From sequence record CP033547.1: a stretch of 64,000 nt of DNA. One strand, written 5' to 3'. The stretch is from a plasmid. Shown here piece after piece: positions 6,702 to 52,618 of the stretch (within the stretch, counting starts at the first letter, position 1; every line of letters begins with the position of its first letter). The notes beneath the pieces are model-generated. The model was not told the DNA's origin. It did not search any database and saw only the letters and a list, made by a program, of their open reading frames with translations. A program made the position numbers and the translations under genes.

Positions 6702-7522
6702 GGCACTGTTGCAAATAGGCTGACATGATAAGCTAAATATCTTATTTATTTCGAGATACAGCAGATGAATCCCTTCCATGGTCGGCACTTTCAAGGTGAA
6801 ATCATTCTTTGGGCTGTTCGTTGGTATTGTAAATATGGCATCAGCTATCGTGAACTTCAAGAAATGCTCGCTGAACGGGGTGTGAATGTTGACCACACCA
6901 CAATTTATCGTTGGGTTCAGCGTTATGCTCCAGAAATGGAAAAACGCTTACGCTGGTATTGGCGTAATCCTACAGATTTACATTCATGGCATATGGATGA
7001 GACTTATATCAAAGTGAAGGGGCGATGGACTTACCTGTATCGTGCAGTTGATCAACGTGGTCATACGATTGACTTTTACCTTTCCGCTAGACGGAACAGT
7101 AAATCAGCCTATTGTTTTTTAGGAAAAATCTTCAATACGGTGAAAAAATGGCAAATTCCACGGGTCATCAATACAGATAAAGCAGCGACCTATGGCCATG
7201 CTTTATCACGGTTAAAGCGAGAAGGAAAATGTCCAGTAGATATTGAGCACAGGCAGATTAAGTATAAAAATAATGTCATTGAATGTGATCATGGTAAGTT
7301 AAAGCGGATCATCAGGGCCACATTAGGATTCAAATCTATGAAGACGGCTTATGCCACAATTAAAGGTATTGAAGTCATGCGTGCACTACGTAAAGGACAA
7401 GCATCGTCATTTTATTATGGTCAGCCTCAAGGTGAAGTGTGTCTAATCAACAGGGTTTTCGGTCTCTAAGCACTTTTAAAAAGGAACTTCATCGACTCAA
7501 ATCTCTATTTGCAACAGTGCCG
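6702..7522 (+). mobile_element. IS1006/IS1008-like IS6-family element (821 bp)
   Basis: Terminal IRs GGCACTGTTGCAAA / TTTGCAACAGTGCC. It interrupts both the IS1202-group copy and the first unit of the tandem array. Confidence 0.8.
6765..7469 (+). CDS. IS6-family transposase (IS1006/IS1008-like), 234 aa
   Basis: About 85% identical to Tnp26, with the characteristic MNPFHGRHFQGEIILWAVRWYCKYG start. Confidence 0.85.
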   Translation: MNPFHGRHFQGEIILWAVRWYCKYGISYRELQEMLAERGVNVDHTTIYRWVQRYAPEMEKRLRWYWRNPTDLHSWHMDETYIKVKGRWTYLYRAVDQRGHTIDFYLSARRNSKSAYCFLGKIFNTVKKWQIPRVINTDKAATYGHALSRLKREGKCPVDIEHRQIKYKNNVIECDHGKLKRIIRATLGFKSMKTAYATIKGIEVMRALRKGQASSFYYGQPQGEVCLINRVFGL

Positions 7523-34719: not shown

Positions 34720-36024
34720 ATGAAGCAATACTGTACACTGCAAATCTACCAAGACTATGAATGGCATGACTGTGCTTTGGTTGAGGTTACGGATGATCAA
34801 AATGCTGGATGGCAGGCAGCTACACGTACATCATATTTGTTCGAATATGCTATTTCATATATGGATCTAAGAGATGGTCATGCGCTTGCTTATGACTTAC
34901 CAGTGAACGTTCAAAATAGATTGGAATCAACTTGGCCAGCATTTCTTATGGATCTATTACCTCAAGGATACGGCCGCAAAGAATTACTAATACAGCTTGA
35001 TTTTTCTGAGAATGTTCAGGAACAAGCGGACTGGGCGCTTTTAAAAGCAGGCGCAGGAAATCCAATTGGGAATCTGCGAGTCAAAGAGGCTCATGAGTGG
35101 TTACAAAGTCATTTCCCAAAGCTGCAGAATCAGGGATTTAGCCTAAGCCAAATTATTGAACGTAAAGAGAAGTTTATTGAATCGCTCGCATCTTATGGAC
35201 TTTTTATTGCTGGTTCATCTGGTATTCAGGGTGAGTGGCCAAAATTGTTGTTAACACAAGGTTATGATGATCTTTTCTATCTAGATCATACTCTTCCAGA
35301 TGATCAAGTTAAGCAGCATTGGTTGGTTAAATTTAGCCGCGGCAGTGATCAAAATTTGAATAAAATCCTGATGAACGAAGCTTTGTATATGAAAGTCGCT
35401 CAGTACTTGCAACTACGTGTACACCGGGATCTTGAGCTACATGGCAAGACTTTGTTTATTCCAAGATTTGATCGCAAAGTAATTAATGGCAAAGTTGAAA
35501 GAATTGCTCAGGAAAGCCTTGCATCTCTAGGTGGGAAGGCGGGCTTTGGGGTTAGAATGACCCATAATCAAATATGTACCCTGCTTATGGAGGCTTGTAC
35601 CGAACCAAAGCAGGAAGTATTTGAGTATTTGAAGCGTGATCTCGCAAATGTTGCCTTAGGCAATAAAGATAACCATACTCGCAATACAGCAATCCAACGC
35701 TTCAATAATGGTAAAATTCAGCTCACACCATTATTTGATTTTGCGCCAATGTGGTTACATCCTGATGGTATTGCACGTACTACTCGTTGGGAAAGAGATG
35801 ATCATGGTGGTATGCCACTTTTGAGTTCTGTGATTGAGCAGATAGCTGAAAGCACTTCGATTGGTCCACAAGAAATTAAAACTTTATTAATTGAACAGTT
35901 ACCAATTTATCGGGGATTGTTAGAAAAGATGCAGGCTCTTCAAGTAGCGGATGAAATTCTGGAAAATAGCCAATATCGAATAATCAATATTTGCCAGCAG
36001 TTGGAGGAGATCAGCCATGGATAA
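34720..36024 (+). CDS. hipA: HipA-family serine/threonine kinase toxin
   Basis: 434-aa protein with HipA N-terminal and C-terminal kinase domains (NKDNHTRNTAIQRFNNGKIQLTPLFDF). Confidence 0.75.
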   Translation: MKQYCTLQIYQDYEWHDCALVEVTDDQNAGWQAATRTSYLFEYAISYMDLRDGHALAYDLPVNVQNRLESTWPAFLMDLLPQGYGRKELLIQLDFSENVQEQADWALLKAGAGNPIGNLRVKEAHEWLQSHFPKLQNQGFSLSQIIERKEKFIESLASYGLFIAGSSGIQGEWPKLLLTQGYDDLFYLDHTLPDDQVKQHWLVKFSRGSDQNLNKILMNEALYMKVAQYLQLRVHRDLELHGKTLFIPRFDRKVINGKVERIAQESLASLGGKAGFGVRMTHNQICTLLMEACTEPKQEVFEYLKRDLANVALGNKDNHTRNTAIQRFNNGKIQLTPLFDFAPMWLHPDGIARTTRWERDDHGGMPLLSSVIEQIAESTSIGPQEIKTLLIEQLPIYRGLLEKMQALQVADEILENSQYRIINICQQLEEISHG

Positions 36025-36235
36025 ACGTTTTAAACCATTGACCCCTATTCAACAAATGGAAAAAAGACTATCTGTGCTTGAAACCATCAATAATCATCCA
36101 GACTGGTCTTTTTATCAAGTTGCTCGATTTATTCGAACAGAGCTACATTTAACACTGAATGATATGGCTAAAATTACTAAGATTGCGCCACAGACACTGC
36201 AAAAATGGAGCAACCAGGGAGCAATCCTACTTTGA
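36017..36235 (+). CDS. XRE-family HTH protein (HipB-like) overlapping the 3' end of hipA
   Basis: HTH LTLNDMAKITKIAPQTLQKWSNQG. 8-bp overlap with hipA. Confidence 0.5.
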   Translation: MDKRFKPLTPIQQMEKRLSVLETINNHPDWSFYQVARFIRTELHLTLNDMAKITKIAPQTLQKWSNQGAILL

Positions 36236-36388
36236 AATCCATGCAGAAATTACTCGATACTTTCGGTTTACAATTACAAATAAAAGTTAAATGATTTTTA
36301 ATTCTGAGCCATCGGTTTTTCTAAAATCTTATCCGTTTAAGGATACAAAGAGGAAATAAACAGGCTCTAGGTTGTTTTATGATTATTT

Positions 36389-36610
36389 TTAGACAAACGA
36401 CTCCAAAACCTTATGTAGCAAGGGTTTTGTCTCTACAGTAATTAATTTATTTTTGAAAAAATGGAGTAGAGTGTTTGAAATATGAATAATCGAATTCCGA
36501 GTTTCTGTAAGCACAGCAATTTCATCTGCATGTGCTTTATATTCATCTATATTTTCGAGTAATTCATCCTCTGAGAATGGGAGTTTTTTTTGATTTTCAG
36601 TGTCGTTCAT
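36389..36610 (-). CDS. Hypothetical protein (73 aa)
   Basis: ORF only. Confidence 0.25.
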   Translation of the reverse strand: MNDTENQKKLPFSEDELLENIDEYKAHADEIAVLTETRNSIIHISNTLLHFFKNKLITVETKPLLHKVLESFV

Positions 36611-36703
36611 AGAGTCATATCCTGAGAAGTTATTTAGATCATCATAAACCAGACATTTTTAATGGTGAGAATACAGACACTTTAAATGGTTTCTAACAAG
36701 ATT

Positions 36704-38187
36704 TGTTATTCCCAAGTAGAAATGTCCTACCTAATAACCAAATAGAAATGTCCTATATGGACATTTCCAAGTCAAGCACAGGATTTAGATTTCGTTGTTC
36801 AATCGCTGTTTTCTGTGCTTGTCTACGTGGCATCTTTTGAGAACGATTGCGTTTGTTTTGGTGTTCCAGTTGTTCATGCTGTTGTTGAATATGTGCCAGC
36901 ACAGAACCCAAACGTTTATTCTCAACGATCTCTCGCTGGTTGAGCTGACTTAATTTATCAAAGATGCTGTAATTGATTTTTCTTCCCTGATATTCAATGG
37001 CTACAGTACCATCCGGATATTCCAAGGAACTCAAGATACTTGCCGCCCAATCTTTGATTTTTCTTCGCTGTTTTCCAAGATATATACGCATTTATCATAA
37101 GTAATCGTCAAGCTGTTCGTGACCCTGCGGGGTTCACGCCAGGTAAAAACATCATCTAATTCTTCGGCTGTTTCAGCGATAGGCCGATGTAGATCCTTGG
37201 AATTAAAAGCCATCTTGGCGAATTTACGATTAAATTGCTCAATAAAGCACGGCAGCCACTTATTGGCATCTGCAATTGAACTGATGCCTTCTAGACGCAT
37301 CTCCTTAATCAGACGATCCTGAAGTGTTCTATTCGCTCGTTCTACACGACCTTTGGCTTGAGGGGAGTTAGCGAAAATGATATCGATATTGAGAGTGCTC
37401 AGAACACGTCCAAACTGGGTAATCTTGGTGTCTTTCTTGCTACTTTGATTCACCCTAAAAACTGAATGTTTGTCACTGTAAAATGCCAATGGCTTACCAT
37501 GCTGTTCGATATATAAACGTGTCGAAATCATATAGTCAAAGGCTGACTCTGACGCACAGAAGCGTAAATGCTGCAATTTTCCTGTGGCATCATCGATGAA
37601 TACTAGCAGACAGCATTTAGGTGCTCGACCTTCAAACCAATCATGGTGTGAGCCATCAATTTGGATCAATTCACCATAACAATCTCGGTTATAACGAGGC
37701 TGATATGGTCGTTTCAGGCGCTTGCAGCGAGGGATCCATAAATCGGCTGCAATCATCCAGGAACGCAGGGTTTCTACTGAAAGATCGAATCCATGCACGG
37801 TGGTGAGCTTTTCATGCGCTAAAGTGGGTCCGAAACCATAAAGTTGATCTGAAACAATATTGAGACACTTAAGTCTGAGTTCTTCAGGAAGTTTAGAATT
37901 GCTGATTTGGCCACGACCGGCATGGGCTAATGCAGCGGGACCTTGAGCTTTGTATTTCTGCAGTAAGCGTCTGATGTGACGTTCTGAGATATGAAGTAGC
38001 TGAGCAGCCTGGGATTGAGTTATACGTTGATCACAGATTTCTTGCAAGACCGACAATCGTTTAAGTTCTTTATCCGACATAGACACCAACATATCAAACC
38101 GTCCGCTAAGGAAATTGCAAAAGCGCATATTCTAAAAGCGGACATTTTTACTTTGGAGAAACCGGACATTTCTATTTTGGGCTTACA
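36704..38187 (-). mobile_element. IS1202-group (ISAjo2-like) IS, best-preserved copy, inserted about 6 bp from the XerC arm of a pdif site
   Basis: Transposase largely intact (365-aa ORF 37031..38128 plus 112-aa ORF 36753..37091). Same IRs as the other copies. Confidence 0.85.
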
Positions 38188-38193
38188 AAGATT

Positions 38194-38221
38194 GCTTCAC
38201 ATAAGAGATTTTATGTTAAAT
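38194..38221. other. pdif site XerC/XerD (GCTTCACATAA-gagatt-TTATGTTAAAT)
   Basis: Direct reading of the sequence. Confidence 0.6.
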
Positions 38222-38254
38222 GTCTTTTTTCATTGCTCTCTGAACTGTTGCAAT

Positions 38255-38392
38255 ACCTACAAACAAAATAAACGCAATCGTTCTCAAAAGATGCCAAGCA
38301 GACGTGCACAGAAAACAGTAATCAAAGAACGAAATCTGAATCCTGTGCTTGACTTGGAAATGTCTGTATAGGACATTTCTACTTGGGAATAA
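38255..38392 (+). mobile_element. 3'-terminal remnant (~135 bp) of another IS1202-group copy on the other side of the same pdif site
   Basis: Encodes ...NKRNRSQKMPSRRAQKTVIKERNLNPVLDLEMSV and ends TTCTACTTGGGAATAACA. Confidence 0.7.
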
Positions 38393-38817
38393 CATCATCA
38401 TGCTATATAAGTATTTAACCGTATTCTTTTATTTTTTGGCGCACCATGTATATAGATACAAAAAAAAGCAATTATTGGATAAATTAATATAGCTCCACCT
38501 GCTCGACCATCTACGGATGGAGATAAGGACATGCTTAAAACAATAAATACAATAAGATATAAAATATAACATGTTCCCCAAGTTAATAATCCAAAGAGTA
38601 TAGGGAAACAAAATTTTGAAATAACTCCAAAGGGCTTCGATCTTTTATAGAGATGCTTTTCAAAAGATTATTCGAAATATTAACAGCAACAATTGTCATA
38701 AATAGATTAAAAAGCAGAAAATAAAGCATACTAAAAATTAAATATGAAAAATAATTTATTATATATTAGTTGATTAAATTTAACATTAATTAAAATATAC
38801 GTTTAAAGATAAGCAAT

Positions 38818-38848
38818 AAAAAACCCCGACATCCTGTCGGGGTTTTTC
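38818..38848. terminator. Strong bidirectional terminator (aaaaaccccgacatcctgtcggggttttt)
   Basis: Inverted repeat flanked by A and T tracts. Confidence 0.65.
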
Positions 38849-39162
38849 GTGTTTGGTTGCAAGGTATAACTCCTGTCGTACCTAACCATCCTTGTGCTGA
38901 TCTTTCTTATTCTTATTGTTTGGAGCTTCCTGCTCTCTATGACTTCATCATAAGAAATAACGCTTTGATCAGCTAGAAGCAGATTCCTTAAATTACTGTA
39001 CGTCAAAGCGTACAAAACTGGCTTAAAAATAGCCCCCAGATTTATCCGCAGAAATTGTGGATTTTTTTCAGGCTGAAAGCCTTATAGATTGTAGGTGATT
39101 TTCTGTTTTGAGTGTTTTTAAGCAAAACTGTTGGCAAAAATATCAAAACCGCTCACAAAAAA

Positions 39163-39192
39163 AGCCGACTATTTCAAAGTCGGCTTTTTGGG
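39163..39192. terminator. Terminator hairpin (aaaaaaagccgactatttcaaagtcggcttttt)
   Basis: Inverted repeat plus a T tract. Confidence 0.6.
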
Positions 39193-39347
39193 CATTTTGG
39201 ATTTTTATGATTTAAATAAGTATCTGATTTTTATATTAATATACGAGTGTATTGCGTATAAGCACCATTATGTTAAATAGACAGTGAATTAGTGGAAAAA
39301 TCCAGTTATTGTGAAGCGTGGATAAGAGATTTTATGTCGAGCAATGA

Positions 39348-39833
39348 TTACCTATCAACAAAGTATTCAGATAAAGTCTGTTTCCATTGAGATTGTATCT
39401 CTTTATTCTTATCTCTATATTTCTCAATACATTTCATAAGGTTATATCTATTTTTTGTACAAATAGTATCTGCTATTTTACTTAATACATCTATTTGATA
39501 AGGAATAGTTAGGCCAAATTTCTCAAGGAGAATATCTATTTCTGGTAAAAATAATCTGACTAATTCTTCATTAGATTTATTAAATTTGTTTTTAAATTCT
39601 TGAGGAATACATGAATTTCCTATGCGATCATAAATTTCAGGATTTTGAACATAATGCTTATTTTCCAATATAAGGCCTTTGTATCTAAGATACTCAATAT
39701 CAATTTTTGATAAATCTTGCTCAAGAAAATAATAACAAGTCCATTTTATTTGTGATAAATGAGTTAATTCAACAAATTGGAATGGTCTCTCAATATATAT
39801 TCCCGTATTATTTATTATTTCACTAATAAACAA
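39348..39833 (-). CDS. Hypothetical protein (161 aa), AT-rich, downstream of the CBASS operon
   Basis: ORF only. No recognisable motifs. Confidence 0.35.
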   Translation of the reverse strand: MFISEIINNTGIYIERPFQFVELTHLSQIKWTCYYFLEQDLSKIDIEYLRYKGLILENKHYVQNPEIYDRIGNSCIPQEFKNKFNKSNEELVRLFLPEIDILLEKFGLTIPYQIDVLSKIADTICTKNRYNLMKCIEKYRDKNKEIQSQWKQTLSEYFVDR

Positions 39834-39871
39834 TATAAAATTAATATGATTCTTATTTAGATATTTTAGAG

Positions 39872-39978
39872 TAGACCTCTTGCGAAAGTATTATTTTTGA
39901 CTATTTTAGACTTTGATATTTATTTAAAAATCAACGTTTATCACTGATTAAATTTTGACTAACGCAAGAGGTCTATAT
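39872..39978. mobile_element. MITE-like 107-bp element with terminal inverted repeats TAGACCTCTTGCG... / ...CGCAAGAGGTCTA
   Basis: Its 19-bp left terminus is identical to the start of the IS5-family remnant at 46090. Confidence 0.5.
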
Positions 39979-40150
39979 ATTATTGGGGATATTAAAGTGA
40001 AGAGAGTCGCTGAGACTTATACAACTTAAAAAATATTTATGTATGCCGACCTTATTTAAAACAAAAAGACTCTTAATTAAAAAAAACAATATATTTATTT
40101 TAACAATTAACTGCTTCGTTAATTAGTCATTTAATCTAACTAAAGAATAT

Positions 40151-41939
40151 CTACAAAGTCGGTTTCTCTTCAATAGATGAAGTATTAGAACTTTCTGAAA
40201 ATTTACCATTATGTAATTTTTCAAAGCAATGTGGACAGGTGTCTCGAGCCACTAATTTCATATCATTAATTTTTCTACCAGTGTAACCAATACTGTAACG
40301 AGTAAAATAGTTATTTTCTAATTGATTAGAATTTCTCCATTCTAAAAGAAGATCGATTGCTAAACCCGCCACAGATAGACTGGATGAAACTGAATAAGGA
40401 GTATATGCAGCGCAAGGTCCCAAGCCCATAACTTTTTTATAGTCCTTATTCCCTAGAGGGTCTAAATCATCTTTATAATCCTGTATTCCAGATTGATGCA
40501 AACAACTAATACATCCACCTTTACTCTCATAATCGGAAGGAGTATTCATCAATGCTTGCACACATTCTCCATTGCCATATATCCATAAATGTAAAAGGTG
40601 TGGCCTATCATGTGCAGGTATTTGAATTATCTTTTCATTTAAATACTCTGCGATTTCAACTTGTCCAGTAGAATCTACTATTAAATCATATTCGTCAAAA
40701 TTACTAATTGTATTTACACTTTTTTCTACAGAGTGAATGAAAAGTCCATTATTACCAACCTGCTCTTTAATATATTCGATTATTGCATTTGCTTTATTTA
40801 ATCCAATATACTTTTTCCCTAATATATGTCTTCCTATATTTTCAAGTTTAAGGTCATCATAATCACAAACACTAAAACAACCTGTTTCCATACCAGCACC
40901 AATTTTAACTAATGCATCTGCAACATATCCTCCGATTGCACCTGCTCCAATTTGTAAAATTTTCAGATTCGTTAAATTATTGTTTTTAATACCTTCTATA
41001 TTTCTATTAATTAATTCTTGCATACAGTAACTCTTTATATAAACAGGTAACACCATCTCCCTCAATATTTCCGATAATATTCTCACATTCCCTTTTAACA
41101 ATTTATAATATTTACTCTTCCATTCTACAAAAAATGAAAAAAAATGATTCTCAAAGACCAAAGAAACGAATATTTTTTTATCGGATTTAAATTTATTTAA
41201 ATTTCTTTTTAAAACAAAAAACAATTAGGATCAATATCATTAATAAATAAAAACATTTTCCCTAATGTTATCTCCCCCTCCCTATTAAAGTAATTTGACA
41301 ATAAAGGAATATTATCTTTAAAAACTTTCAACAAAATAAAATCAAAATCAATCGTTTTTGACATTTATTATCTTTAGTAGAAATATATGTTAAAGGTAGA
41401 TTCTGAAAACTCCCATTATTATTTAACTCCACAAATAAGTTTTCAGAACTATACTTTTTCTCAAACTCATTTGAAAATATCATCCACATTGGAATTATTT
41501 CTTTTCTCAACTCTTTCATAAAAATTGAGGGATTCATTAATTCTAATATTACATGTTTAAATTGGCTTTCCAGAAAACATATAACATCTACCAGATTCTT
41601 TCTATTAATTTCTATTTTGTCATGCAAGGCATAGCAAAAATTATAGGCTTTTTATTCAAATAAGTAAAATGAGAATCAATTGAAAAATGAGGCAAAGGGA
41701 AAATAAAATGTTTAATCCTTTTATTTACTTCCAATTAAATCATCTTCAAACAAATACACTCTTGGAGGATTAATAAAATCCCAATCCAAAAAAAAATACA
41801 CCTAATCTTATATTGAATCCAGATACAACAATATTTTTCACCCATAAACTATTGTAAAACCGTTTTTTTAAATTTGTATCATAGGGATCCACTAGATTAT
41901 AACCTAGCTGTGTAAGATATTGAGCACATGAAGCGGGAA
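40151..41939 (-). CDS. cap2: CBASS Cap2-like E2/E1 (ThiF/MoeB) protein. The E1 part (40151..41224) is intact. The upstream E2-like part (41328..41939) is fragmented.
   Basis: ThiF fold GAGAIGGYVADALVKIGAG...D...CxxC. Upstream fragments include ...INPPRVYLFEDDL and the 99-aa ORF. The overall length of about 596 aa fits Cap2. Confidence 0.55.
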
Positions 41940-42440
41940 TCAAAGCGTATCCCCCTCATAAACTCTTAAAGCATAATATTTTTTATTTAAAAGTAAACTA
42001 AACCAATCTTCTTTATAACTTTTGTTTCCTGCTATCCATAGTAACTTAGGAAGCTCATTAAATTTCCCATTACTAATAAGTTGACTCCACCCTTGATAAT
42101 CACAATTAGAAGGCCGTGGTTGTGGTTCTGGATGAGTATGCCATTCGCCTATATATTGTAATATCCCATTTGAAATTTCATGTACCTTGTTTAAATAACT
42201 TTGATGTTTTGTAGACTTTCTATGAAAGCTATAAATAGTTCTTTCATCATCATCTGCTGGAGAACTAATATCGATTACCCTTAATGATTTACTACGTATT
42301 TCACCAATAATTATTCCACACGCCTCAGCTTTTTGAGCATCTGCAAACTGTCTGTGAAGATGAATTAAATGAAGTGCACTATCTGTTAAGTGCACTTCAA
42401 ATCTTAGTTCATCAGAATAAAGATGCAAGCCCAACTTCAC
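41940..42440 (-). CDS. cap3: CBASS Cap3-like JAB/MPN (JAMM) deubiquitinase-like protein
   Basis: JAMM motif EWHTHPEPQPRPSNCD (HxHx7Sx2D) and an upstream E (CGIIIGE). Confidence 0.7.
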   Translation of the reverse strand: MKLGLHLYSDELRFEVHLTDSALHLIHLHRQFADAQKAEACGIIIGEIRSKSLRVIDISSPADDDERTIYSFHRKSTKHQSYLNKVHEISNGILQYIGEWHTHPEPQPRPSNCDYQGWSQLISNGKFNELPKLLWIAGNKSYKEDWFSLLLNKKYYALRVYEGDTL

Positions 42441-43619
42441 CCACCCCTTGTAGGTTCAATTATTGCTGGGGACGTAGCTTGATATGGCAATTCCTGATTA
42501 GCATTCTCAATAACCACATAACTTTCATTGTCAGGAATTCTTTTTCCGAATTGGCTTCGCAGAAAACCAATTGAAGTTTTAGGTGATTCAATATCAATAG
42601 CTACTGAAACTGCGCTAAGTAAATCTTTAGCTAAATCATGCGCTTCTTGTCTTTCCTCTTTAGGAATTCTATTGAAGTCTTCATCTGTATGTTCAGGAAT
42701 AGAAGGTTCTTTGACTGGCCCAAGTAATGCCTTTGGGAGATGTCTTAAAACATGCAATAAAAGCAAGATCATCTCTATCTTTAACATATTGATAATTTTG
42801 ATTTGCTATAATCATCAGCAATATTGAGCTTGGCCCTCCACCATCTTTATATTCTTGATCTCGCCAAGCTTTAAGATAACGAGCAATATATCTTAATTGC
42901 CGACCATTATCTTCTTGATCAGCCAAAAAATCTGCATACCATTTACGAATTAACTCACAGTCACTATCTTTCCAATTACCATCACGTAAAGCCATATGGA
43001 TTTTAGTAATGTAATGTAATTCGATGATTTTCGCTTCACTTTCAAAGCTTTCAGTTGCGTAGTGATAACCCTTGAATACATATTCATCTTTGGCAATTGT
43101 TGCTTTTGCCTCATCTAGAATCATATTGTTTCTTTCAACTAAGCTATCGAACATTGGATCAGGTACAATATAAAGAGGTACATCCATATGTGCATTGCCT
43201 TTCAATATAAGTCGGCAACAAGTATTTTTATCTTTACATAGTTTCCAACCCTCACTATCAGCCAAAGGTTGCAATAACGTTTCCACTGCCAAATAATATG
43301 ATTTAGCTACCTTATCAGAACGTCCCTGAGCTAATAAAGAATTTGGAAGGTACACACCATAATCAACATCCATTTCTTGTGTAGGGTATGCTGGCTGGTT
43401 ACAAGTACCATAAGCCCAAGATCCTTGAAGACGGAATTTTGGCTTAACAAGATTTGGATCGCCTCCATTCTCTACAATGAAATTTGCCATACCTTGCTTC
43501 CAGCGTGGCTCTTACCTTTTGACGACACGCATTTAAATAATCACGCTGATCATTTGTAGGCTTAATTTGTGTAATAAAGCCGTCATCTCTAGCTCTAAAA
43601 GTTCTGTGTAAATTACTAC
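42437..43619 (-). CDS. CD-NTase (cGAS/DncV-like nucleotidyltransferase), with two frameshifts
   Basis: GSWAYGT...DVDYGVYL (GS...DxD) and a downstream MDVPLY. The N-terminus MGSNLHRTFRARDDGF...KVRATLEA continues in another frame from the ATG at 43619. Confidence 0.7.
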
Positions 43620-44640
43620 CCATTTAATTTATCTCCCCCTACATTTTTTTGTGGCCCATCAAACCATTCTCTTTTTCTAGAAGGCTGATTAAAATAATTT
43701 CGTATAAAATCTTTGCCCAATGCAACTTTTGCAGATTGAATTCCATTTCCTTCAAGTACTTGCTTAGCAGCATCACTTGTTTCATCTAGTCCAATAAATT
43801 GGGCTGATGCTTGCACGATCTGTTCGTCGATTTTGTAAAATTGGTTTGGAAATGGTTCCATTCTATGCTTAACCATTTGTTCCATAAATTGTTGCTGGCT
43901 ACTCAAAACTAGATCAATAATATTTGGAGCTGCCTTAAGGATAGACCCCTCACCCCAATCTAGGTATCCACCATCTTTTTTTTGTACTTGGATTAAGCTG
44001 CTTTTTTGACGATAAAGTACCAATCGAAAGAATGTGTACATCTTGAATATTCTTTTTAAACATATAATCAGCTTCATGTAAGCCAATCAAGCTAGGATCA
44101 TTAGCAAAAAGCCCACCATCTACATATTCATTTGGACCAATCGGATGTCGTGGAAAATAAGTAGGCGCTGCAGATGTAGCTAAAGCTACATCAACTATTT
44201 TTAATTTCCAATCACGTTTCAGATTTGGATTATGTGGTGTTTTCAGGGTTACAGGACTGCCTCGTGTGAAATCAATTGTAGGAATAACTACAGGACATTT
44301 GAGATCTCCTAAAATTGAATCTCCGAACCACTCTTCTAAGACAGTTTTCAATGATTCATTAGAGTATTTTGAACCTGTAAATTTAAGAAAAGGCTTAGGC
44401 TGAAATATTTTATCACCGTGTGATTTAAACAAATCAACGATAGCTTCAACTTTTATTCCATAAGCAATTGCCAACGCGACTATACCACCGACAGAGGTAC
44501 CGGTTATTAGATCAAAACAATCAGCTATAGAGTCGTGTCCATTTTCTTTAGCTTCTTGCTCTAATTCTTTTAAAACTGTTGCAGTGAATAACCCTCGATA
44601 TCCCCCCTCCTGATAGAGCTAGGATTTGAAATTTTTCCAT
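43616..44640 (-). CDS. capV: Patatin-like phospholipase effector (CapV-like), frameshifted
   Basis: N-terminal GGGYRG and GTSVGG (RC of 44475-44640), then DGG (VDGGLFANDPS). Its stop overlaps the CD-NTase start (ATGGGTAG). Confidence 0.7.
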
Positions 44641-44989
44641 TTTTGTTGAACTTATAATATGAATTACTTTTTTTTTATGAGGCCATTTGTGTGAATTTCA
44701 ACCCATTTTTTGAAAAAAAATTTATATTTTTGTTGGTTTTGTTGCATAAACATTTTGCAAGGTACTGATTTTTTAAAGGTTTGCGCAGAATTTCAACCTA
44801 AGAATAAATTTAATAAAATCATATTCTTAGGTATTTATGCAACAAAGCCTTTTTGTTTGCAAGAGCTACTTATATGCACTGCTATTATATTGAGTAATAT
44901 ATTTCTAAAAATTAAGATGGAGTTTTACTCTTATAACAAATAAAATTTAGTAACAATATATTTTTTATAATTTAATTTAGGTATATCTA

Positions 44990-45436
44990 GTGACACATTC
45001 AGTCGATCGACTCATACATAACTCACTTAAAGAAATATGTAAAAAATGTAAAGAAGATTTTTCAGGCTTAGCGATAGTTTGTTATGAGGATTTAAGTCAC
45101 CTTCCCTATATAAGCTTACATAAAGAACAATTTTTTACCGATTTTGATTTAAAAAATATTAATGAAACCTTACTGAGAATATCTACTTATTCTTCAGCCT
45201 ACCATGATGGATTTCATTTCTATGATATTAACTCTAAAAAATTAACCCATATTTCTCAATTCATCTCCCCTCCGTTAGAGTCTGTAGCATATATGAATAT
45301 TGAAAATATCATTCCTTGCGGTGCTCGTGAGATGACAGCTTACTTAACATCGAGTATTCAAGGAATATTTTGTGTAGGCCTGATCAGTGCCAATAAGACT
45401 ATAAAAGTTTTTAAAAACAACTCAATTGTTAAATAA
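44990..45436 (+). CDS. Stand-alone diadenylate-cyclase (DisA_N/DAC)-like domain protein, 148 aa, with an atypical REM in place of RHR
   Basis: YHDGFHFYD (compare HDGAVII) and GAREMTAYLTS (compare GTRHRAALGIS), with DAC-like spacing. No DisA linker or HhH domains. Confidence 0.5.
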   Translation: MTHSVDRLIHNSLKEICKKCKEDFSGLAIVCYEDLSHLPYISLHKEQFFTDFDLKNINETLLRISTYSSAYHDGFHFYDINSKKLTHISQFISPPLESVAYMNIENIIPCGAREMTAYLTSSIQGIFCVGLISANKTIKVFKNNSIVK

Positions 45437-45447
45437 CGGGTAAGTGC

Positions 45448-46089
45448 ATGAGTTTTTTAGTACTAAAATTTAATGAGCTAACAAAAATAATTTACTTATT
45501 TGTAGGACTTACTGGTGTATTTATTGGATTAATACAATTTGTTAATTGGCTTGTTGCTGGAAGTCTAACTTTACTCCAATCTCTAACCCCTTCCATTACC
45601 GTATCACTTTTTATCTTAGGCTTACTTCTTAGAACAGTTACAATTAAGCATAAGTTTTTAAGTATTATTATTGGCAAGCCAATTATACATGGATTATGGA
45701 AAGGGAATTTGACGAGCAATTTTGAGGTAAATGGACAAAAAATTCCTCCAATTGAAATCTATTTCTTCATAAAGCAGACTTTCTTAATAACCACCATCAA
45801 ATCTTACACCTCACATCAGGCATCTGAATCAATCATTACAGCTTTGTCCCACAATAAAGACAGTGAAATTTCTGATTTTATCTATATTTATAAGTTTTAT
45901 CGGACAAAACATAGTGAAAATAAGGTGACTTTCGGTAGTGGAAATTTAAGACTAATCAACCAAGGACAAACTTTGGAAGGCTTCTATTGGACTACTGCAA
46001 ATACATGCGGTGAAATCGAGTTAAATTTGATAGAACGTAATTGTGAAAGCATAGACTCCTATCAACTAGCAAAGCAACATGATAAATAA
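45448..46089 (+). CDS. Two-TM membrane protein with a C-terminal soluble domain (predicted effector partner of the DAC-like gene)
   Basis: Two hydrophobic helices in the first ~65 aa. Starts 11 bp after the DAC-like gene. Confidence 0.45.
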   Translation: MSFLVLKFNELTKIIYLFVGLTGVFIGLIQFVNWLVAGSLTLLQSLTPSITVSLFILGLLLRTVTIKHKFLSIIIGKPIIHGLWKGNLTSNFEVNGQKIPPIEIYFFIKQTFLITTIKSYTSHQASESIITALSHNKDSEISDFIYIYKFYRTKHSENKVTFGSGNLRLINQGQTLEGFYWTTANTCGEIELNLIERNCESIDSYQLAKQHDK

Positions 46090-46372
46090 TAGACCTCTTG
46101 CGAAAGTAAAAAATGCCTCAATATAGATTTCATGAGATATGAGAAATTAAACCGTTTTTCAGATTCTGAATTTAAGCGCTTGGTTGGTGTACCTCGACCA
46201 GTTTTTACTGGAAGTGGTCGATGTTTTAGAAAAAGCAGAATCACTTAAAAAGAAATCAGGTCGTCCTCATACTTTAGCTATAGAGGATCAATTATTATTA
46301 ACGCTCAATTACTTACGCAACTACAACACTCAACTAGAATTGGCGGCATACTACCATATCGCTGAAAGTAAT
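46090..46372 (+). mobile_element. 5' remnant of an IS5-family element (DDE transposase N-terminal HTH), interrupted by the IS3-family insertion
   Basis: The GRPHTLAIEDQLLLTLNYLRNYNTQLELAAYYHIAESNVNRT motif is typical of IS5/IS427-group transposase N-termini. Confidence 0.5.
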
Positions 46373-47706
46373 GTGAACCGTACCGGGTTTGTCGGAGAGT
46401 CAATATTCTGAGAGACTACCCCCGATGACAAAATTAAAATACACCCCTGAAATCAGAGATAGAGCGGTTCAATTATTGATTGAATCTGAAAAAGATTATC
46501 CTTCTACTTGGGCTGCAATCACAGCAATTGCGCCTAAGATTGGTTGTACTCCTGAAACACTTCGTGCCTGGCATCAAAAGCATTTAGATCAGCAAAATCC
46601 AGTTAAAGTACAGCAGCTTTCAGACCAAGAACGTATCAAACAACTCGAACGCGAAAATAAAGAAATAAAGAACTGCAACGCACCAATGAGATTCTACGTA
46701 AAGCAGCCGCTTTTTTCGCCCAGGCGGAGCTCGACCGCCCACACAAATAATGGTGGATTTCATCCATAACAATAAAGATCGATATGGTGTTGATGCGATT
46801 TGTAGGATTTTACCGATCGCAGCTTCAACCTATTACCGAACTTTAGATCTCGCTGACAATCCAGAACATCGAGCGAAACGAGATCTACATGATGAGTATC
46901 ATGCTGAACAAATTCAACGAATTTGGAAAGAAAGTTCAGGTCGATATGGTGTGCGTAAGGTCTGGCAACAATTGAAACGTGAAGGTTATGTTATCGCACG
47001 TTGTACAGTTGCTCGATTGATGCAGAAGCTAGGTATACAAGGTGTCTGGCGTGGTAAGAATAAACAAACCACCCGTAGCCGAGATGATCAAAAACGAGCA
47101 GCTGACTTAGTGAAACGGAATTTTAGTGCAGATCAGCCCGACCACCTTACGAAACAGTGTTTCTCAGGTCACTGATTTTACGTATATTCAAACCCATTCA
47201 GGCTGGGTCTATACCGCCTTTATTATTGATGAGTTCTCACGAGCAATTGTTGGATGGAAAGTATCGACACGGATGAATACAGATATGGTGCTCGATGCAT
47301 TAGAGCAAGCATTACATGATCGAGGTATACCCAAGAATGTGATTCATCATTCCGACAGAGGTGTGCAATATCTTTCCATTCGTTATACCAATCGTTTAGA
47401 AGCAGCAAATTTACGAGCTTCCAGTCGGTACAACTGGTGATTCATACGATAATGCTTTGGCTGAAACGGTGAATGGCTTATACAAAACAGAGGTGATTGA
47501 ATATTTAAAAGCAGATTGGCGTGGTTTAGCAGATGTACAACTTGCGACATTAAACTGGGTAGATTGGTTCAATAAAGAGCGTGTACATAGTGCACTGGGT
47601 TATGTGTCACCTGTTGATTTTTGGAAGCAATGTACTATGATAAAATTAATCCGTTAGGTCAGGTAGCCTAACTTAAATAAAGTCTCCGACAAACCCGGTA
47701 CGGTTC
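46373..47706 (+). mobile_element. IS3-family IS (copy A, degenerate), about 1334 bp
   Basis: IRs TGAACCGTACCGGGTTTGTCGGAGAG. orfA 46425..46769. orfB broken over 46750..47657. Confidence 0.8.
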
Positions 47707-47767
47707 AGGTTGATTTATCCAATAGCCTGCAATTAGTTGAATATTCTTATCTAAATATAAAATTTTC

Positions 47768-48957
47768 CTTTGTACACGACAAAAAAAGATAACTCATTGA
47801 AATAATGGCATAATACTTGTTTTCTGACGACGAATATGATGACACATTTCAATGAGTTACATCTCATCTTAAACAAATATCTAAAGTGGAACAAGTCACA
47901 TGCAAAATGTTTTACACTGATTATGCTTGCATTAATTGTAAAACAGACATGTAATCTTTCTTCTGCATCTAAAGCCTTACCCATCAAGTGCTTACCACAA
48001 TCATTTTATCGACGTATACAACGCTTCTTTGCAGATCAGTATTTCGATTATCGTCAAATTTCTCAGTTAATTTTCAATATATTTTCATTCGATAAAGTCC
48101 AATTAACTTTGGATAGAACCAACTGGAAATGGGGAAAACGAGATATCAATATCTTGATGTTAGCCATCGTCTATCGTGGAATAGCGATACCTATTGTTTG
48201 GACATTGCTCAATAAACGTGGCAATTCAGATACAAAAGAGCGTATTGCTTTGATTCAACGCTTTATCTCCATTTTTGGTAAAGATCGTATTGTGAATGTG
48301 TTCGCAGACAGAGAATTTATCGGTGAGAAATGGTTTACATGGTTAATTGAAAATGACATTCACTTCTGTATACGTGTTAAAAAAAACTTTATTGTGACCA
48401 ATCACTTAGCCAAGAATCATAAAATTAGTGATTTATTTCGTCATCTTCAAGTTGGTCAAACAGAATGTCGTAAACGACGTATTTGGGTTGGTCGAGTGAA
48501 ACTGTATATTAGTGCGCTACGATTAGAAGATGGAGAACTTTTACTTGTTGTTTCTCCTATGTTTAATGCTTCTGCTATTCGTGATTATGCATTACGCTGG
48601 GAAATCGAAACCTTATTTAGTTGTCTCAAAGGACGTGGATTCAATCTTGAAAATACTCGTTTAACAGACCCTAGACGAGTTAAGAAATTGATAGCAGTGC
48701 TAGCTATCGGTTTCTGTTGGTGCTATTTAACAGGTGAATGGCAACATGATCGAAAAAAGCGATAAAAATAAAGAAGCATGGACGACTTTCAATAAGTTTA
48801 TTTCGCTACGGTTTGGACTATGTTCAAATGGTTATTCTACGTTTGATTGGTTTTGGAAAAAAAGAAGAATTTAAGAAAGTGCTCGCAATTTTAAGAAAGA
48901 AAAAGCCTGATAGAACAAGGGCCCTATGAAATTTGTCGTGTACAGAGAAAATTTTCA
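47768..48957 (+). mobile_element. ISAba1-like IS4-family element flanked by a 9-bp target duplication AAAATTTTC
   Basis: Ends CTTTGTACACGACA... / ...TTTGTCGTGTACAGAG. Identical 9-mers at 47759-47767 and 48958-48966. Confidence 0.7.
47836..48765 (+). CDS. IS4-family transposase (ISAba1-like), 309 aa
   Basis: DDE transposase within the IS. Confidence 0.7.
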   Translation: MMTHFNELHLILNKYLKWNKSHAKCFTLIMLALIVKQTCNLSSASKALPIKCLPQSFYRRIQRFFADQYFDYRQISQLIFNIFSFDKVQLTLDRTNWKWGKRDINILMLAIVYRGIAIPIVWTLLNKRGNSDTKERIALIQRFISIFGKDRIVNVFADREFIGEKWFTWLIENDIHFCIRVKKNFIVTNHLAKNHKISDLFRHLQVGQTECRKRRIWVGRVKLYISALRLEDGELLLVVSPMFNASAIRDYALRWEIETLFSCLKGRGFNLENTRLTDPRRVKKLIAVLAIGFCWCYLTGEWQHDRKKR

Positions 48958-50154
48958 CTGAGCAGCACTTAAATAATCTCCCCACCACTGCATCATTTCA
49001 GTTCGTTGAATTAAATAATCCGCATGATTATAGCTAGCACGTGTACGATTCTTATCAATATGCGAAAGTTGAGCCTCAATCCAATTATCTTGGAACAATC
49101 CTGAGTCATTCAAAATAGTACTGAAGGTAGAACGTAATCCATGGGAGGAAAGTTGATGTTTTCCATACCCCATCTTACGTATAGCCATATTTAATGTATT
49201 AAAATGAATCGGGTGATCCTGCTTTCGCGGACTAGCAAAAATGAATTTTTCACCCAATGACCATTGCATCGCATCTTTTAAGATCTCTAACGCCTGATCT
49301 GAAAGTGGAACTAAAAAATCTGGAATTTCATGTCCTAGGATAACTTTACGTCGAAACTGTTTAATATGTAAGGCTGGAATTCTCCAAATTTTATCTTTTA
49401 TATCAAAATGATGAGGTTCAGCCATTAACAACTCTGCCCCTCGCACGCCAGTATATAATTTAAACATGAGTGCTTTTTTTAATAATGGGATGTGCATCCA
49501 ACTTTTTTAATTTATGCATAAAATCTGAGATGTCTTCAGCTTTTAAATAAGGATAGTTCTTCTTGATTTTATTGTTAACAGCAATTTTATTTAAACCATG
49601 CGCGATATTATATTCACAATAGCCCATTGCTACAGCATAGTCAAAAATTTGGTTCAAATAACTACAAGCTTTTTGACAGGTTCTTTAACTTGACGTGACT
49701 CTATTTTTCTAATTATTGAAACTAGGTCATAGCGCTTAATATCTTGAAAAGGGATATCCTGAAGAACTGGATAAATATCATGCTGTAAACATTTTTCTGC
49801 TAACTGGAGAACACCACAGCGTGGTAAATCATTGAATGCATTTTTAAGTTTGAACTGTAGCCACTCCTCTGCTACCTGATGAAAAGTAATTAAATTAGAA
49901 ACAGTTTCATTTTCAAAACAGAAATTATTATCTCTAAAATCATCCCTGACTTGTCGTGCCTTTTTCAGGGATAAATCAGGATAAAGCCCTAACTGAATTC
50001 GGCGGCGTTTCTTGGTTTTTGGATCTGTATATCGATAACTCCAAGACTTCCTTCCATTTGGTTCAATTTTTAGACTAAGTCCATCTTCATCCGATAAAAA
50101 ACAAGTTTTTTCCTTGCAATGAGCTTGGCGAACTTTAATTTCAGTAAGACTCAT
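48955..50154 (-). CDS. int: Tyrosine integrase (P4-like), split into 3 ORFs by frameshifts
   Basis: C-terminal catalytic domain (HGLRSTF...RASYNHADY) and an N-terminal arm-binding/SAM-like region. Confidence 0.7.
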
Positions 50155-50548
50155 GAGATTTGAATGAAACCTATCAATGGACTGATCAAATTAATTATAC
50201 CAAAATAGAAGGACTTTCATATGATGCGTAGACTACGCATCATATATATTCTGTAATATATTGTTTTATATATTTAATATTTTAAGTATTTGTATTTTAG
50301 TAACCATTATAAGTACCACCTCTTCTTTAAGTTCCCAACAACTCACTTTTTCTGTCATCAATGTTAAATAAGTCTTGTGCTTTAAATTCTTAGATGACCT
50401 CCTCTACCCTTTATTATCATTTTTATAAAAGTAACTATATGTACTCATTAAAATTTGTAGAGCTCAAAAACAAAAAAGACCGCTATATAGCAGTCTTTTA
50501 ACTTAATTAAATAATAATTAATTCATTTTCATCATAAGTGCATAAGCA

Positions 50549-50803
50549 TCACGTTTGTTTTGACGCAATGATTCTATCTCGGACTTCGTCAGCTGTTTTA
50601 CGAGAGTTGAGGATATACTTTGCTTCCCACTCTGTGAGCCTTTCGAAATCGTACCCGTAAATCGATTTCCACCATGCTTCAAGATTACCATATACATCCC
50701 TCAATTGCTGAAGAGTTTCTTTACTTAGAGCTAATTGTGATGAGTATTGTTTACCCGTCAGTGCATATGCTCCAATAACTTTATTCGTCCCAGTTGTTTC
50801 CAA
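50549..50803 (-). CDS. Hypothetical protein (84 aa)
   Basis: ORF only. Confidence 0.25.
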   Translation of the reverse strand: METTGTNKVIGAYALTGKQYSSQLALSKETLQQLRDVYGNLEAWWKSIYGYDFERLTEWEAKYILNSRKTADEVRDRIIASKQT

Positions 50804-51093
50804 TATGACCTTTTAATGATGGCTAGCATTAAATTTTACACTAAATTTACCGCTAGCATCTCTTGGATATTATTTTTCGTATCAGGCAGCACTCTCAAAA
50901 GCCGTTTGTTTGGACAGTCCCCATGATCATACACGAGGCAGCTTCAAATACTTATGGGCCCATCCTATCCAGTTGTATCTTCTTGCATCACATGAATATT
51001 GTATACTCATTTTGACTACTTGAAAATTATGGAACAACGTCAATAAAAACAATAACTCTAGAGTCTTTAGTCGACATTCCTAAAAAGTGAACC

Positions 51094-52394
51094 GTACCGG
51101 GTTTGTCGGAGAGTCAATATTCTGAGAGACTATCCCGATGACAAAATTAAAATATACCCCTGAAATCAGAGAAAGAGCGGTTCAATTATTGATTGAATCT
51201 GAAAAAGATTATCCTTCTACTTGGGCTGCAATCACAGCAATTGCGCCTAAGATTGGTTGTACTCCTGAAACACTTCGTGCCTGGCATCAAAAGCATTTAG
51301 ATCAGCAAAATCCTATTAAAGTACAACAGATATCTGATCAAGAAAAAATGAAGCAAATGGAACGTGAAATTAAAGAATTAAAGCGTGCCAATGAAATTCT
51401 ACGTAAAGCAGCCGCTTTTTTCGCCCAGGCGGAGCTCGACCGCCCACACAAATAATGGTGGATTTCATCCATAACAATAAAGACTTATATGGTGTTGATG
51501 CGATTTGTAGGATTTTACCGATCGCAGCTTCAACCTATTACCGGACTCTAGATCTCTGCGAAAATCCAGAACATCGAGCAAAGCGAGATTTACATGACTT
51601 GCATCATGCTGAGGAGATTAAACGAATTTGGAAGGAAAGTTCAGGTCGGTATGGTGTACGTAAAGTCTGGCAAAAACTGAAACGTGAAGGCTATATTATT
51701 GCACGCTGTACTGTTGCTCGATTAATGAAAAAGCTAGGTATACAAGGTATTTGGCGAGGTAAGAACAAACAAACCACCCGTAGTCGAGATGACCAAAAAC
51801 GAGCACCTGACTTGGTGAAACGGAATTTTAGAGCTGATCAGCCTAATCACTTGTGGGTTGCTGACTTTACCTATATTCAAACAAATTCAGGCTGGGTCTA
51901 TACCGCCTTTATTATTGATGTGTTCTCACGAGCAATTGTTGGATGGAAAGTATCTACACGGATGAATACAGATATGGTACTCGATGCACTTGAGCAAGCA
52001 TTGCACGATCGAGGCATGCCAAAGAATGTGATTCATCATTCCGATAGAGGTGTTCAATATCTTTCTATTCGCTATACCAATCGTTTAGAAGCTGCAAATT
52101 TACGAGCATCAGTCGGTACAACTGGTGATTCATACGATAATGCTCTGGCTGAAACGGTGAATGGCTTATACAAAACAGAGGTGATTGAATATCTAAAAGC
52201 AGATTGGCAAGGTTTAGCGGATGTACAACTTGCGACACTAAACTGGGTAGATTGGTTCAATAAAAGCGTGTACACAGTGCACTGGGTTATGTATCGCCTT
52301 TTTGAGTTTGAAGCAATGTACTATGATAAGATTAACCCGTTAGGTCAGGTGGCCTAACTTAAATAAAAAGTCTCCGACAAACCCGGTACGGTTC
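51094..52394 (+). mobile_element. IS3-family IS (copy B), about 1301 bp
   Basis: Same IRs as copy A. orfA 51138..51455. orfB 51455..52357 has a frameshifted C-terminus. Confidence 0.85.
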
Positions 52395-52618
52395 AAAGGT
52401 AAATTCAACATTTCTTTCCATATCATTTCTTTGTGTCTCTGGATGAACAAAAGAAACATAGCTTATTTCAAAGAATCGGGCTAGGGTTTTTATGCCAATG
52501 ATTTTGTTCTCTTCATTAGCAATTAAAACATCTAATTCCAGATCAAACTCTTCTAATTATTTAATTAAATCTTTAACTTTCATTTTACTATCAACCTCTA
52601 TGAATTATTTAAAAATTA

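Follow-up and report, generated by a model that had tools for sequence, protein, structure and literature searches.

Two preprints dated 11 August 2026 describe a two-gene antiphage architecture, named Panoptoo by Ragucci, Haley & Kranzusch (10.64898/2026.08.10.743927) and PanDA by Nabhani et al. (PMC13640721), in which a synthase, PanS, constitutively makes c-di-AMP or cUA and so represses a membrane effector, PanE, until sponges such as Acb4 release PanE (10.64898/2026.08.10.743927; PMC13640721). We analysed a gene pair in a 64,000-nucleotide stretch of plasmid DNA (sequence record CP033547.1), referred to as the window, and conclude that the two genes are very probably a panS-panE operon, that is, a Panoptoo/PanDA guard standing beside a type II cyclic-oligonucleotide-based antiphage signalling system (CBASS), which it backs up.

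In the described systems, PanE is toxic alone and the phage sponge Acb4 sets off this toxicity (10.64898/2026.08.10.743927); escaper phages bear acb4 mutations, and PanE binds c-di-AMP and permeabilises the membrane (PMC13640721). The 1.5 Å structure of Rhizobium etli PanS with cUA places D71/G72 and G107/R108 in contact with the ligand backbone and has a flexible lid that selects the bases, and homologous PanS enzymes give 3'3'-linked products (10.64898/2026.08.10.743927). More than 90% of minimal diadenylate cyclases (DACs) share an operon with a 2TM-beta protein, and about 50% have a CBASS at most 10 genes away, which typically includes Cap2/Cap3 and an effector of the patatin or 2TM type (PMC13640721).

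The first gene of the pair encodes a protein of 148 amino acids, which has no match in Pfam (DisA_N, PF02457, included), PADLOC-DB 2.0 or NCBIfam, even at E<=10. The search against DisA_N that a first-pass annotation, made from the letters of the window, had proposed as a check thus came back empty, and PADLOC recognises only the second protein of the pair, as a 2TM effector. The hidden Markov model (HMM) libraries gave nothing, and PanS was identified through PDB sequences, a fold search and the literature. A phmmer search of PDB sequences returns a single entry, 37jy_A 'Panoptoo PanS synthase' (147 aa; E 7e-11, residues 9-141), and a profile of 21 homologues matches the same entry at E 9.2e-19 over residues 9-148; identity to PanS of R. 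etli Mim1 is 27% over the full length (BLASTP E 3e-17). The AlphaFold2 (AF2) model built from the 21-homologue alignment has a predicted local distance difference test score (pLDDT) of 78.3 and a predicted TM-score of 0.79, and its best 50 Foldseek matches in the PDB are all diadenylate cyclases (CdaA, DacA, DisA, DacM and CdaM; probability 1.00, TM-score 0.55-0.63), an outcome that bears out the proposal of a DAC fold. The alignments with DAC catalytic domains take in 139-148 of the 148 residues, in keeping with the earlier statement that all DisA and CdaA accessory domains are lacking; judged by the model, PanS has nothing outside its catalytic domain, and no sensor or regulatory module. Model and homology together support its assignment as a stand-alone minimal nucleotide cyclase of the DAC fold.

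The catalytic motifs had been recognised correctly from the raw sequence as HDG and GAREMTA, but the spacing given for them, about 30 residues, was too short. HDGFH occupies residues 72-76 and GAREMTA residues 111-117, with 36 residues between G74 and G111 and a distance of 40 from D73 to R113, a distance that ranges from 33 to 42 among 186 family proteins. The 21-homologue alignment has no variation at H72, D73, G74, F75, H76, G111, A112, R113, M115 or S121, and conservation of at least 90% at F24, E114 and T116; across the 186 family proteins G-x-R is present in all 186 and HDGFH in 172. These residues agree with the conservation reported for PanS (D, G, G and R 100%; HDGFH 94%; F22, F70 and S113 >99%; PMC13640721), the counterparts in the window protein being HDGFH 72-76, G111, R113, F24 and S121. 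The replacement of the canonical RHR by REM is real, but it does not distinguish a new DAC variant, a candidate that we rejected: the two residues after the conserved arginine vary freely across the family (REM, RQM, RHM, RYM, RLM, RYR, RYL and others), only G-x-R being conserved, and by this comparison REM is the version of the Acinetobacter/Psychrobacter clade and ordinary within-family variation. An exhaustive profile search (E<=1e-3) places the family at 303 clusters at 50% identity, nearly all of 140-165 aa, while tblastn of PanS against 50,697 phage records gives no match.

The second gene lies on the same strand after a gap of 11 nt (45437-45447 in the open reading frame map) and encodes 213 amino acids with, as the first-pass annotation had it, two N-terminal transmembrane helices and a soluble domain. 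By hydropathy, two hydrophobic stretches run from about residue 10 to 43 and from about 42 to 67, the single-sequence AF2 model is helical with good confidence over residues 2-75, and the Pfam family PF18153 (Cap15_CD_rec) matches residues 78-192 (E 2.7e-10; 41 bits against a gathering cut-off of 31.2). Fourteen PADLOC '2TM effector' models match PanE, the best being PDLC00702 at E 1.2e-23. With the lone PanE sequence, phmmer gave only chance matches in the PDB and did not reach Cap15, so that a profile of 11 proteins from the PanE position was required; this matches Cap15 (7n34) over the whole barrel at E 2e-4. The sequence evidence supports PanE as an S-2TMbeta/Cap15-type membrane effector.

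The pair recurs in Acinetobacter, Psychrobacter, Marinomonas, Luteimonas, Dechloromonas and Rhizobium, usually adjoining a patatin-type type II CBASS. On the chromosomes of A. pittii and A. baumannii, orthologues of 153 and 217 aa are divergent from CapV/DncV-like CD-NTase/Cap3/Cap2, as in the window; in Psychrobacter the pair follows the same CBASS type in tandem; on marine metagenome contigs the two are convergent; and on the R. etli Mim1 plasmid that encodes the 37jy-matching protein the pair adjoins a CapV-type type II CBASS. A species-level scan (one genome per species) yields 12 loci, of which 11 are non-self: the PanE homologue starts within about 30 nt of the PanS stop in nine of these, and a type II CBASS lies within 7 kb in eight, so the proposed check of gene-neighbourhood conservation came out in favour of the pair. 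The evidence obtained at this locus comprises the DAC fold, homology to a solved PanS, the conserved catalytic residues, a Cap15-type effector, the operon, and a pairing and a CBASS neighbourhood that are both conserved.

Two minimal DACs with HDGFH and GQGART lack PanE downstream, at 6962-7438 of metagenome-assembled genome (MAG) contig JAJYDF010000048.1 (L019) and at 6950-7438 of JAGVJQ010000034.1 (L020). The same-strand gene directly upstream encodes a DUF5662 protein in the former and a 2H phosphoesterase (PF13563, 2'-5' RNA ligase superfamily) in the latter. From gene content, an orphan DAC paired with what may be a cyclic-nucleotide phosphodiesterase could form a module of another kind.

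Positions 36000-52000 of the window are about 99% identical to clinical Acinetobacter plasmids, namely pNDM-32 of A. baumannii CHI-32 and several others, 61-112 kb in size, from A. pittii and A. baumannii, and 99.7% identical to a MAG contig (L009). Between pNDM-32 and window positions 44788-46210 there are zero mismatches or indels, so panS-panE is identical in the two, and at least seven clinical Acinetobacter plasmids (61-112 kb) carry the locus with 100% conservation. PanS corresponds to WP_000149838.1 and PanE to WP_000009204.1, both annotated 'hypothetical protein' in RefSeq.

The reported Acinetobacter PanS made only c-di-AMP, which is attributed to A112/T116 at the positions of DisA T107/T111, and the cUA-capable EcPanS has G104 and A108 there (PMC13640721). 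The window protein carries A112/T116, whereas the cUA-making RePanS has G and A at these positions; because A112/T116 match the assayed Acinetobacter enzyme, the product at this locus is predicted, by analogy, to be most likely 3'3'-c-di-AMP.

For the mode of action we draw on the homologues in the two preprints: that synthesis is constitutive and regulation negative, that sponges are the trigger and that the membrane is permeabilised are carried over from them to this locus, as is the identity of the product. On that basis PanS, a minimal diadenylate cyclase without a regulator, would dimerise around its active site and constitutively make a 3'3' cyclic dinucleotide, which would bind the cytoplasmic beta-barrel of PanE and keep the two-transmembrane-helix protein inactive. 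A phage cyclic-nucleotide sponge (Acb4, Acb2) deployed against CBASS would also absorb this decoy signal, and PanE, once de-repressed, would permeabilise the inner membrane and abort the infection. The proposal of an abortive-infection architecture holds to the extent that a defence-associated cyclase is paired with a membrane effector, but the logic of classical abortive infection, in which infection triggers the signal, would, by analogy with the homologues, be reversed, with a signal that is constitutive and inhibitory. The likeness to Panoptes that had been suggested was well founded, Panoptes being a two-gene guard by CBASS with an S2TMbeta effector.

The membership of PanE in the Cap15 receptor family, together with the ligand activation of CBASS Cap15 (10.64898/2026.08.10.743927), would suit classical positive signalling, in which PanS would stay silent until infection and its product would then activate PanE, as in CBASS. 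This is very improbable in view of the composition of PanS, a catalytic domain without sensor or regulatory module, and of the behaviour of homologues, which co-purify with their product (10.64898/2026.08.10.743927; PMC13640721); moreover, the toxicity of lone PanE is rescued by active PanS and not by the D68A and R105A mutants (10.64898/2026.08.10.743927; PMC13640721). It is barely credible that PanE is instead a second Cap15-type effector of the adjacent CBASS, answering the product of the DncV-like CD-NTase, with the first protein of the pair unrelated. That CBASS does adjoin panSE directly, and 73% of S2TMbeta effectors are CBASS Cap15 proteins (10.64898/2026.08.10.743927), but it already has CapV, the DAC active site of PanS is intact, and PanE stays with PanS at a gap of 0-30 nt whether the pair is divergent from, in tandem with or convergent to CBASS.

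A toxin held in check by a constitutively made inhibitor is formally like a toxin-antitoxin system, and this likeness, with the complete conservation on the clinical plasmids noted above, would fit a pair that serves mainly as a plasmid addiction (post-segregational killing) module and only secondarily against phages. The pair is also chromosomal in A. pittii, A. baumannii and Psychrobacter, where it is tied to CBASS and not to replication or partition genes, and homologues have direct phage-defence phenotypes (PMC13640721), which makes such a primary role improbable. A speculative and rather unlikely extension is that panSE on pNDM-32-type plasmids is more than a guard and acts additionally in small-molecule-antitoxin addiction, in that plasmid loss might dilute c-di-AMP and free long-lived PanE; its sole support at this locus is the strict conservation on these plasmids, which panSE would, if it were true, help to stabilise. 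A weaker variant of this speculation concerns the lid loop, which is 2-3 residues longer in the window PanS than in Re/Ec PanS (D-to-R 40 against 37): the clade with the longer loop and GAR/T116 might make a product other than c-di-AMP or cUA.

Several points weigh against the conclusion that panS-panE is a guard for the neighbouring CBASS. The locus is known from sequence alone, and the assayed AbPanS may be the window sequence or one of the 53%-identical chromosomal A. baumannii/pittii homologues; the main texts of both preprints give no AbPanS accession and do not name the window sequence (10.64898/2026.08.10.743927; PMC13640721). The assignment of c-di-AMP uses a two-residue rule drawn from few enzymes, and the two groups arrive at different physiological ligands (cUA or c-di-AMP), E. 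coli systems included (10.64898/2026.08.10.743927; PMC13640721). Pfam DisA_N fails to detect PanS even at the permissive threshold given above. The single-sequence model of PanE has an overall pLDDT of 51.6, with residues 76-213 below 50, and the case for the barrel is therefore made by the sequence profiles and not by the model. Indel errors are frequent in the window, and 1.1 kb of intact sequence is by itself no sign of selection; the evidence is the identity of panSE to its copies on seven plasmids.

The coordinates of panS, panE and their neighbours are collected in Table 1.

Table 1. Features of the panS-panE locus and its surroundings, in window coordinates (strand: +, -, or. where not applicable)
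Feature	Coordinates	Strand	Remarks
MITE-like element, 104 bp	39872..39975	.	Has copy 1 of the 19-bp repeat as its left terminal inverted repeat; outside the defence system
cap2 (E1/E2 ThiF-family)	40151..41943	-	In four pieces in the window through homopolymer indels
cap3 (JAB deubiquitinase-like)	41940..42440	-	Intact in the window
DncV-like CD-NTase	42437..43623	-	Window frameshifts at 42759 and 43500
capV, patatin-like phospholipase effector of type II CBASS	43616..44641	-	tblastn; PADLOC phospholipase E 3.9e-111; window frameshifts at 43976 and 44602
capV-panS divergent intergenic region	44642..44989	.	AT-rich; putative promoters
panS	44990..45436	+	GTG start; 148 aa; predicted minimal diadenylate-cyclase-fold synthase
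panE	45448..46089	+	213 aa; putative S-2TMbeta (Cap15-type) effector; transmembrane helices ~14-36 and ~45-65, barrel receptor domain ~78-200
Truncated DDE-transposase insertion sequence, left end	46090..46370	+	Has copy 2 of the 19-bp repeat as its terminal repeat; outside the defence system

Of the adjoining CBASS, cap2, the CD-NTase gene (RefSeq 'cyclic GMP-AMP synthase DncV-like nucleotidyltransferase') and capV are each split into 2-4 frames in the window. At every one of these frameshift sites pNDM-32 and the MAG contig L009 agree against the window, and all four CBASS genes are intact in both; the window-specific indels number 14-19, and nearly every one of them alters the length of a run of A, T or C by a single base. 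The possibility of decaying CBASS pseudogenes beside a guard that was kept is rejected, since these single-base run-length indels are absent from the MAG contig and pNDM-32, and by this comparison the frameshifts are window-specific homopolymer errors, not decay. The indels extend across 38460-47622 (for example at 41216, 41355, 41788, 42759, 43500, 43976 and 44602), mostly in A/T runs of 5-9 bases, and also split a copy of an insertion sequence (IS) of the IS3 family and further genes. The whole window has only 43 open reading frames of at least 150 aa, which suggests the same indel problem throughout; its probable origin is a long-read assembly that was left unpolished, and apparent pseudogenes elsewhere in the window are not to be trusted.

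Besides CBASS and panSE, the block 36000-52000 holds an ISNCY transposase, a gene for a 161-aa hypothetical protein (39348-39833), IS copies and a tyrosine integrase with Arm-DNA-bind_3 and Phage_int_M domains (48955-50154, minus strand). The integrase is divided among three open reading frames in the window (166, 65 and 180 aa), and one uninterrupted gene (about 400 aa; 1,200 bp) encodes it in pNDM-32; the splitting is probably another indel artefact.

The region of about 350 bp between capV and panS, described earlier as AT-rich and divergent, measures about 349 bp with 22.6% GC, against 36.9% across the whole window. This length assumes that CapV starts at the ATG at about 44641, as is backed by the A. 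pittii orthologue and the PADLOC phospholipase profile; RefSeq CapV in pNDM-32 is longer, at 377 aa, and its start mapped onto the window leaves a gap of about 236 bp. The region presumably holds promoters; a single weak sigma-70-like match occurs at 44933-44962 on the plus strand, and such matches are no commoner in 44642-44989 than in shuffled sequence.

Two exact copies of a 19-nt repeat, TAGACCTCTTGCGAAAGTA, lie at 39872-39890 and 46090-46108, against a chance expectation of about 0.01 matches, and they do bracket the block as the first-pass annotation observed, although not as the boundary of an island. The left copy is one end of a miniature inverted-repeat transposable element (MITE), whose direct copy at 39872-39890 is answered by an inverted copy at 39957-39975 (16/19 bases). 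A MITE with the same ends lies elsewhere in Acinetobacter sp. Ac_5812 (L011 11902-12006), as an element of 104-105 bp with terminal inverted repeats of about 19 bp (TAGACCTCTTGCGAAAGTA at one end and its reverse complement at the other); this copy sits between the cap2-matching and patatin-matching regions of that strain's CBASS. The right copy begins a truncated IS, in which the N-terminus of the transposase is encoded from about 40 nt inside the repeat; with the window's extra G at 46210 taken out, it matches Pfam HTH_Tnp_4 at E 1.3e-8. This IS is interrupted by an IS3-family copy from about 46370. An attachment site or a target duplication was rejected as the origin of the repeats, given that they are terminal inverted repeats of the MITE and the truncated IS, that the MITE also occurs elsewhere, and that no tRNA gene is present in the window; they are the ends of transposable elements, which lie on either side of the CBASS-panSE block by coincidence. 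Two IS3-family copies, at 46370-47660 and 51084-52400, share about 89-92% identity; the first, which is frameshifted in the window, sits within another IS a short way downstream of panE, and the second has the usual orfA/orfB.

These results add little new biology, the family, structure, products and guard mechanism having been set out in the two preprints of August 2026. Their value lies in annotation, since WP_000149838.1 and WP_000009204.1 can be named as PanS and PanE on several clinical Acinetobacter plasmids, and in the observation that a cassette of CBASS plus guard travels on plasmids such as pNDM-32. This cassette may alter phage susceptibility, including susceptibility to therapeutic phages with Acb-type sponges. 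As a point of method, a reading of the raw sequence recognised a DAC active site that Pfam, PADLOC 2023 and NCBIfam missed.

Panoptes (OptS mCpol plus OptE 2TMbeta) is likewise a two-gene guard by CBASS in which a constitutive decoy cyclic nucleotide represses an S2TMbeta effector and phage sponges are the trigger (PMC12657218, PMC12657230), but its synthase is a minimal CRISPR polymerase (GGDEF/Cas10 palm) that makes 2'3'-c-di-AMP, whereas the window synthase is predicted to have the DAC fold and PanS has no GGDEF or mCpol match in Pfam. Hailong (HalB nucleotidyltransferase plus HalA membrane channel) shares a constitutive nucleotide-derived inhibitor that holds a membrane effector off, and is likened mechanistically in the PanDA paper (PMC13640721); going by family assignment, its components would differ, the window synthase being DAC-fold and the effector Cap15-family. 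The CBASS protein Cap15 (7n34) has the two-transmembrane and beta-barrel architecture of a cyclic-dinucleotide receptor in common with PanE, but Cap15 lies in a CD-NTase operon and is ligand-activated, whereas PanE lies with a DAC and is ligand-inhibited in homologues; in the window panE belongs to the panS operon, divergent from a CD-NTase operon that has its own effector, CapV. Canonical DACs (DisA/CdaA/CdaS; DisA_N, PF02457) share with PanS the catalytic fold, the D-G of DGA and the first arginine of RHR. PanS differs from them in having no regulatory, membrane or DNA-binding domain, in reading DGF for DGA and R-E-M for RHR, in escaping the Pfam HMM and, by analogy, in a role that would be defence and not homeostasis; the host clade is otherwise without c-di-AMP signalling, a mutual exclusivity stated in PMC13640721.

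From Panoptoo/PanDA there is no difference in kind, the distance amounting to 27% identity to the crystallised R. etli PanS and 53% to the chromosomal A. baumannii homologues. The locus shares with these systems a DAC-only synthase of about 150 aa with HDGFH and G-x-R, a 2TM beta-barrel effector directly downstream, a position beside a type II CBASS with a patatin effector and Cap2/Cap3, a mobile element in a Pseudomonadota host, and A112/T116 as in the assayed Acinetobacter PanS. The first-pass annotation had suggested that the pair may be an undescribed family, and had named an exact match to an already characterised system as what would refute this; the pair matches such a system, and the claim of novelty therefore falls, the family being already described as Panoptoo/PanDA, with 37jy a PanS and an Acinetobacter PanS assayed. 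On the sequence comparisons made here, the pair in the window agrees with the characterised family in every feature tested and is a further, itself uncharacterised, member of it.

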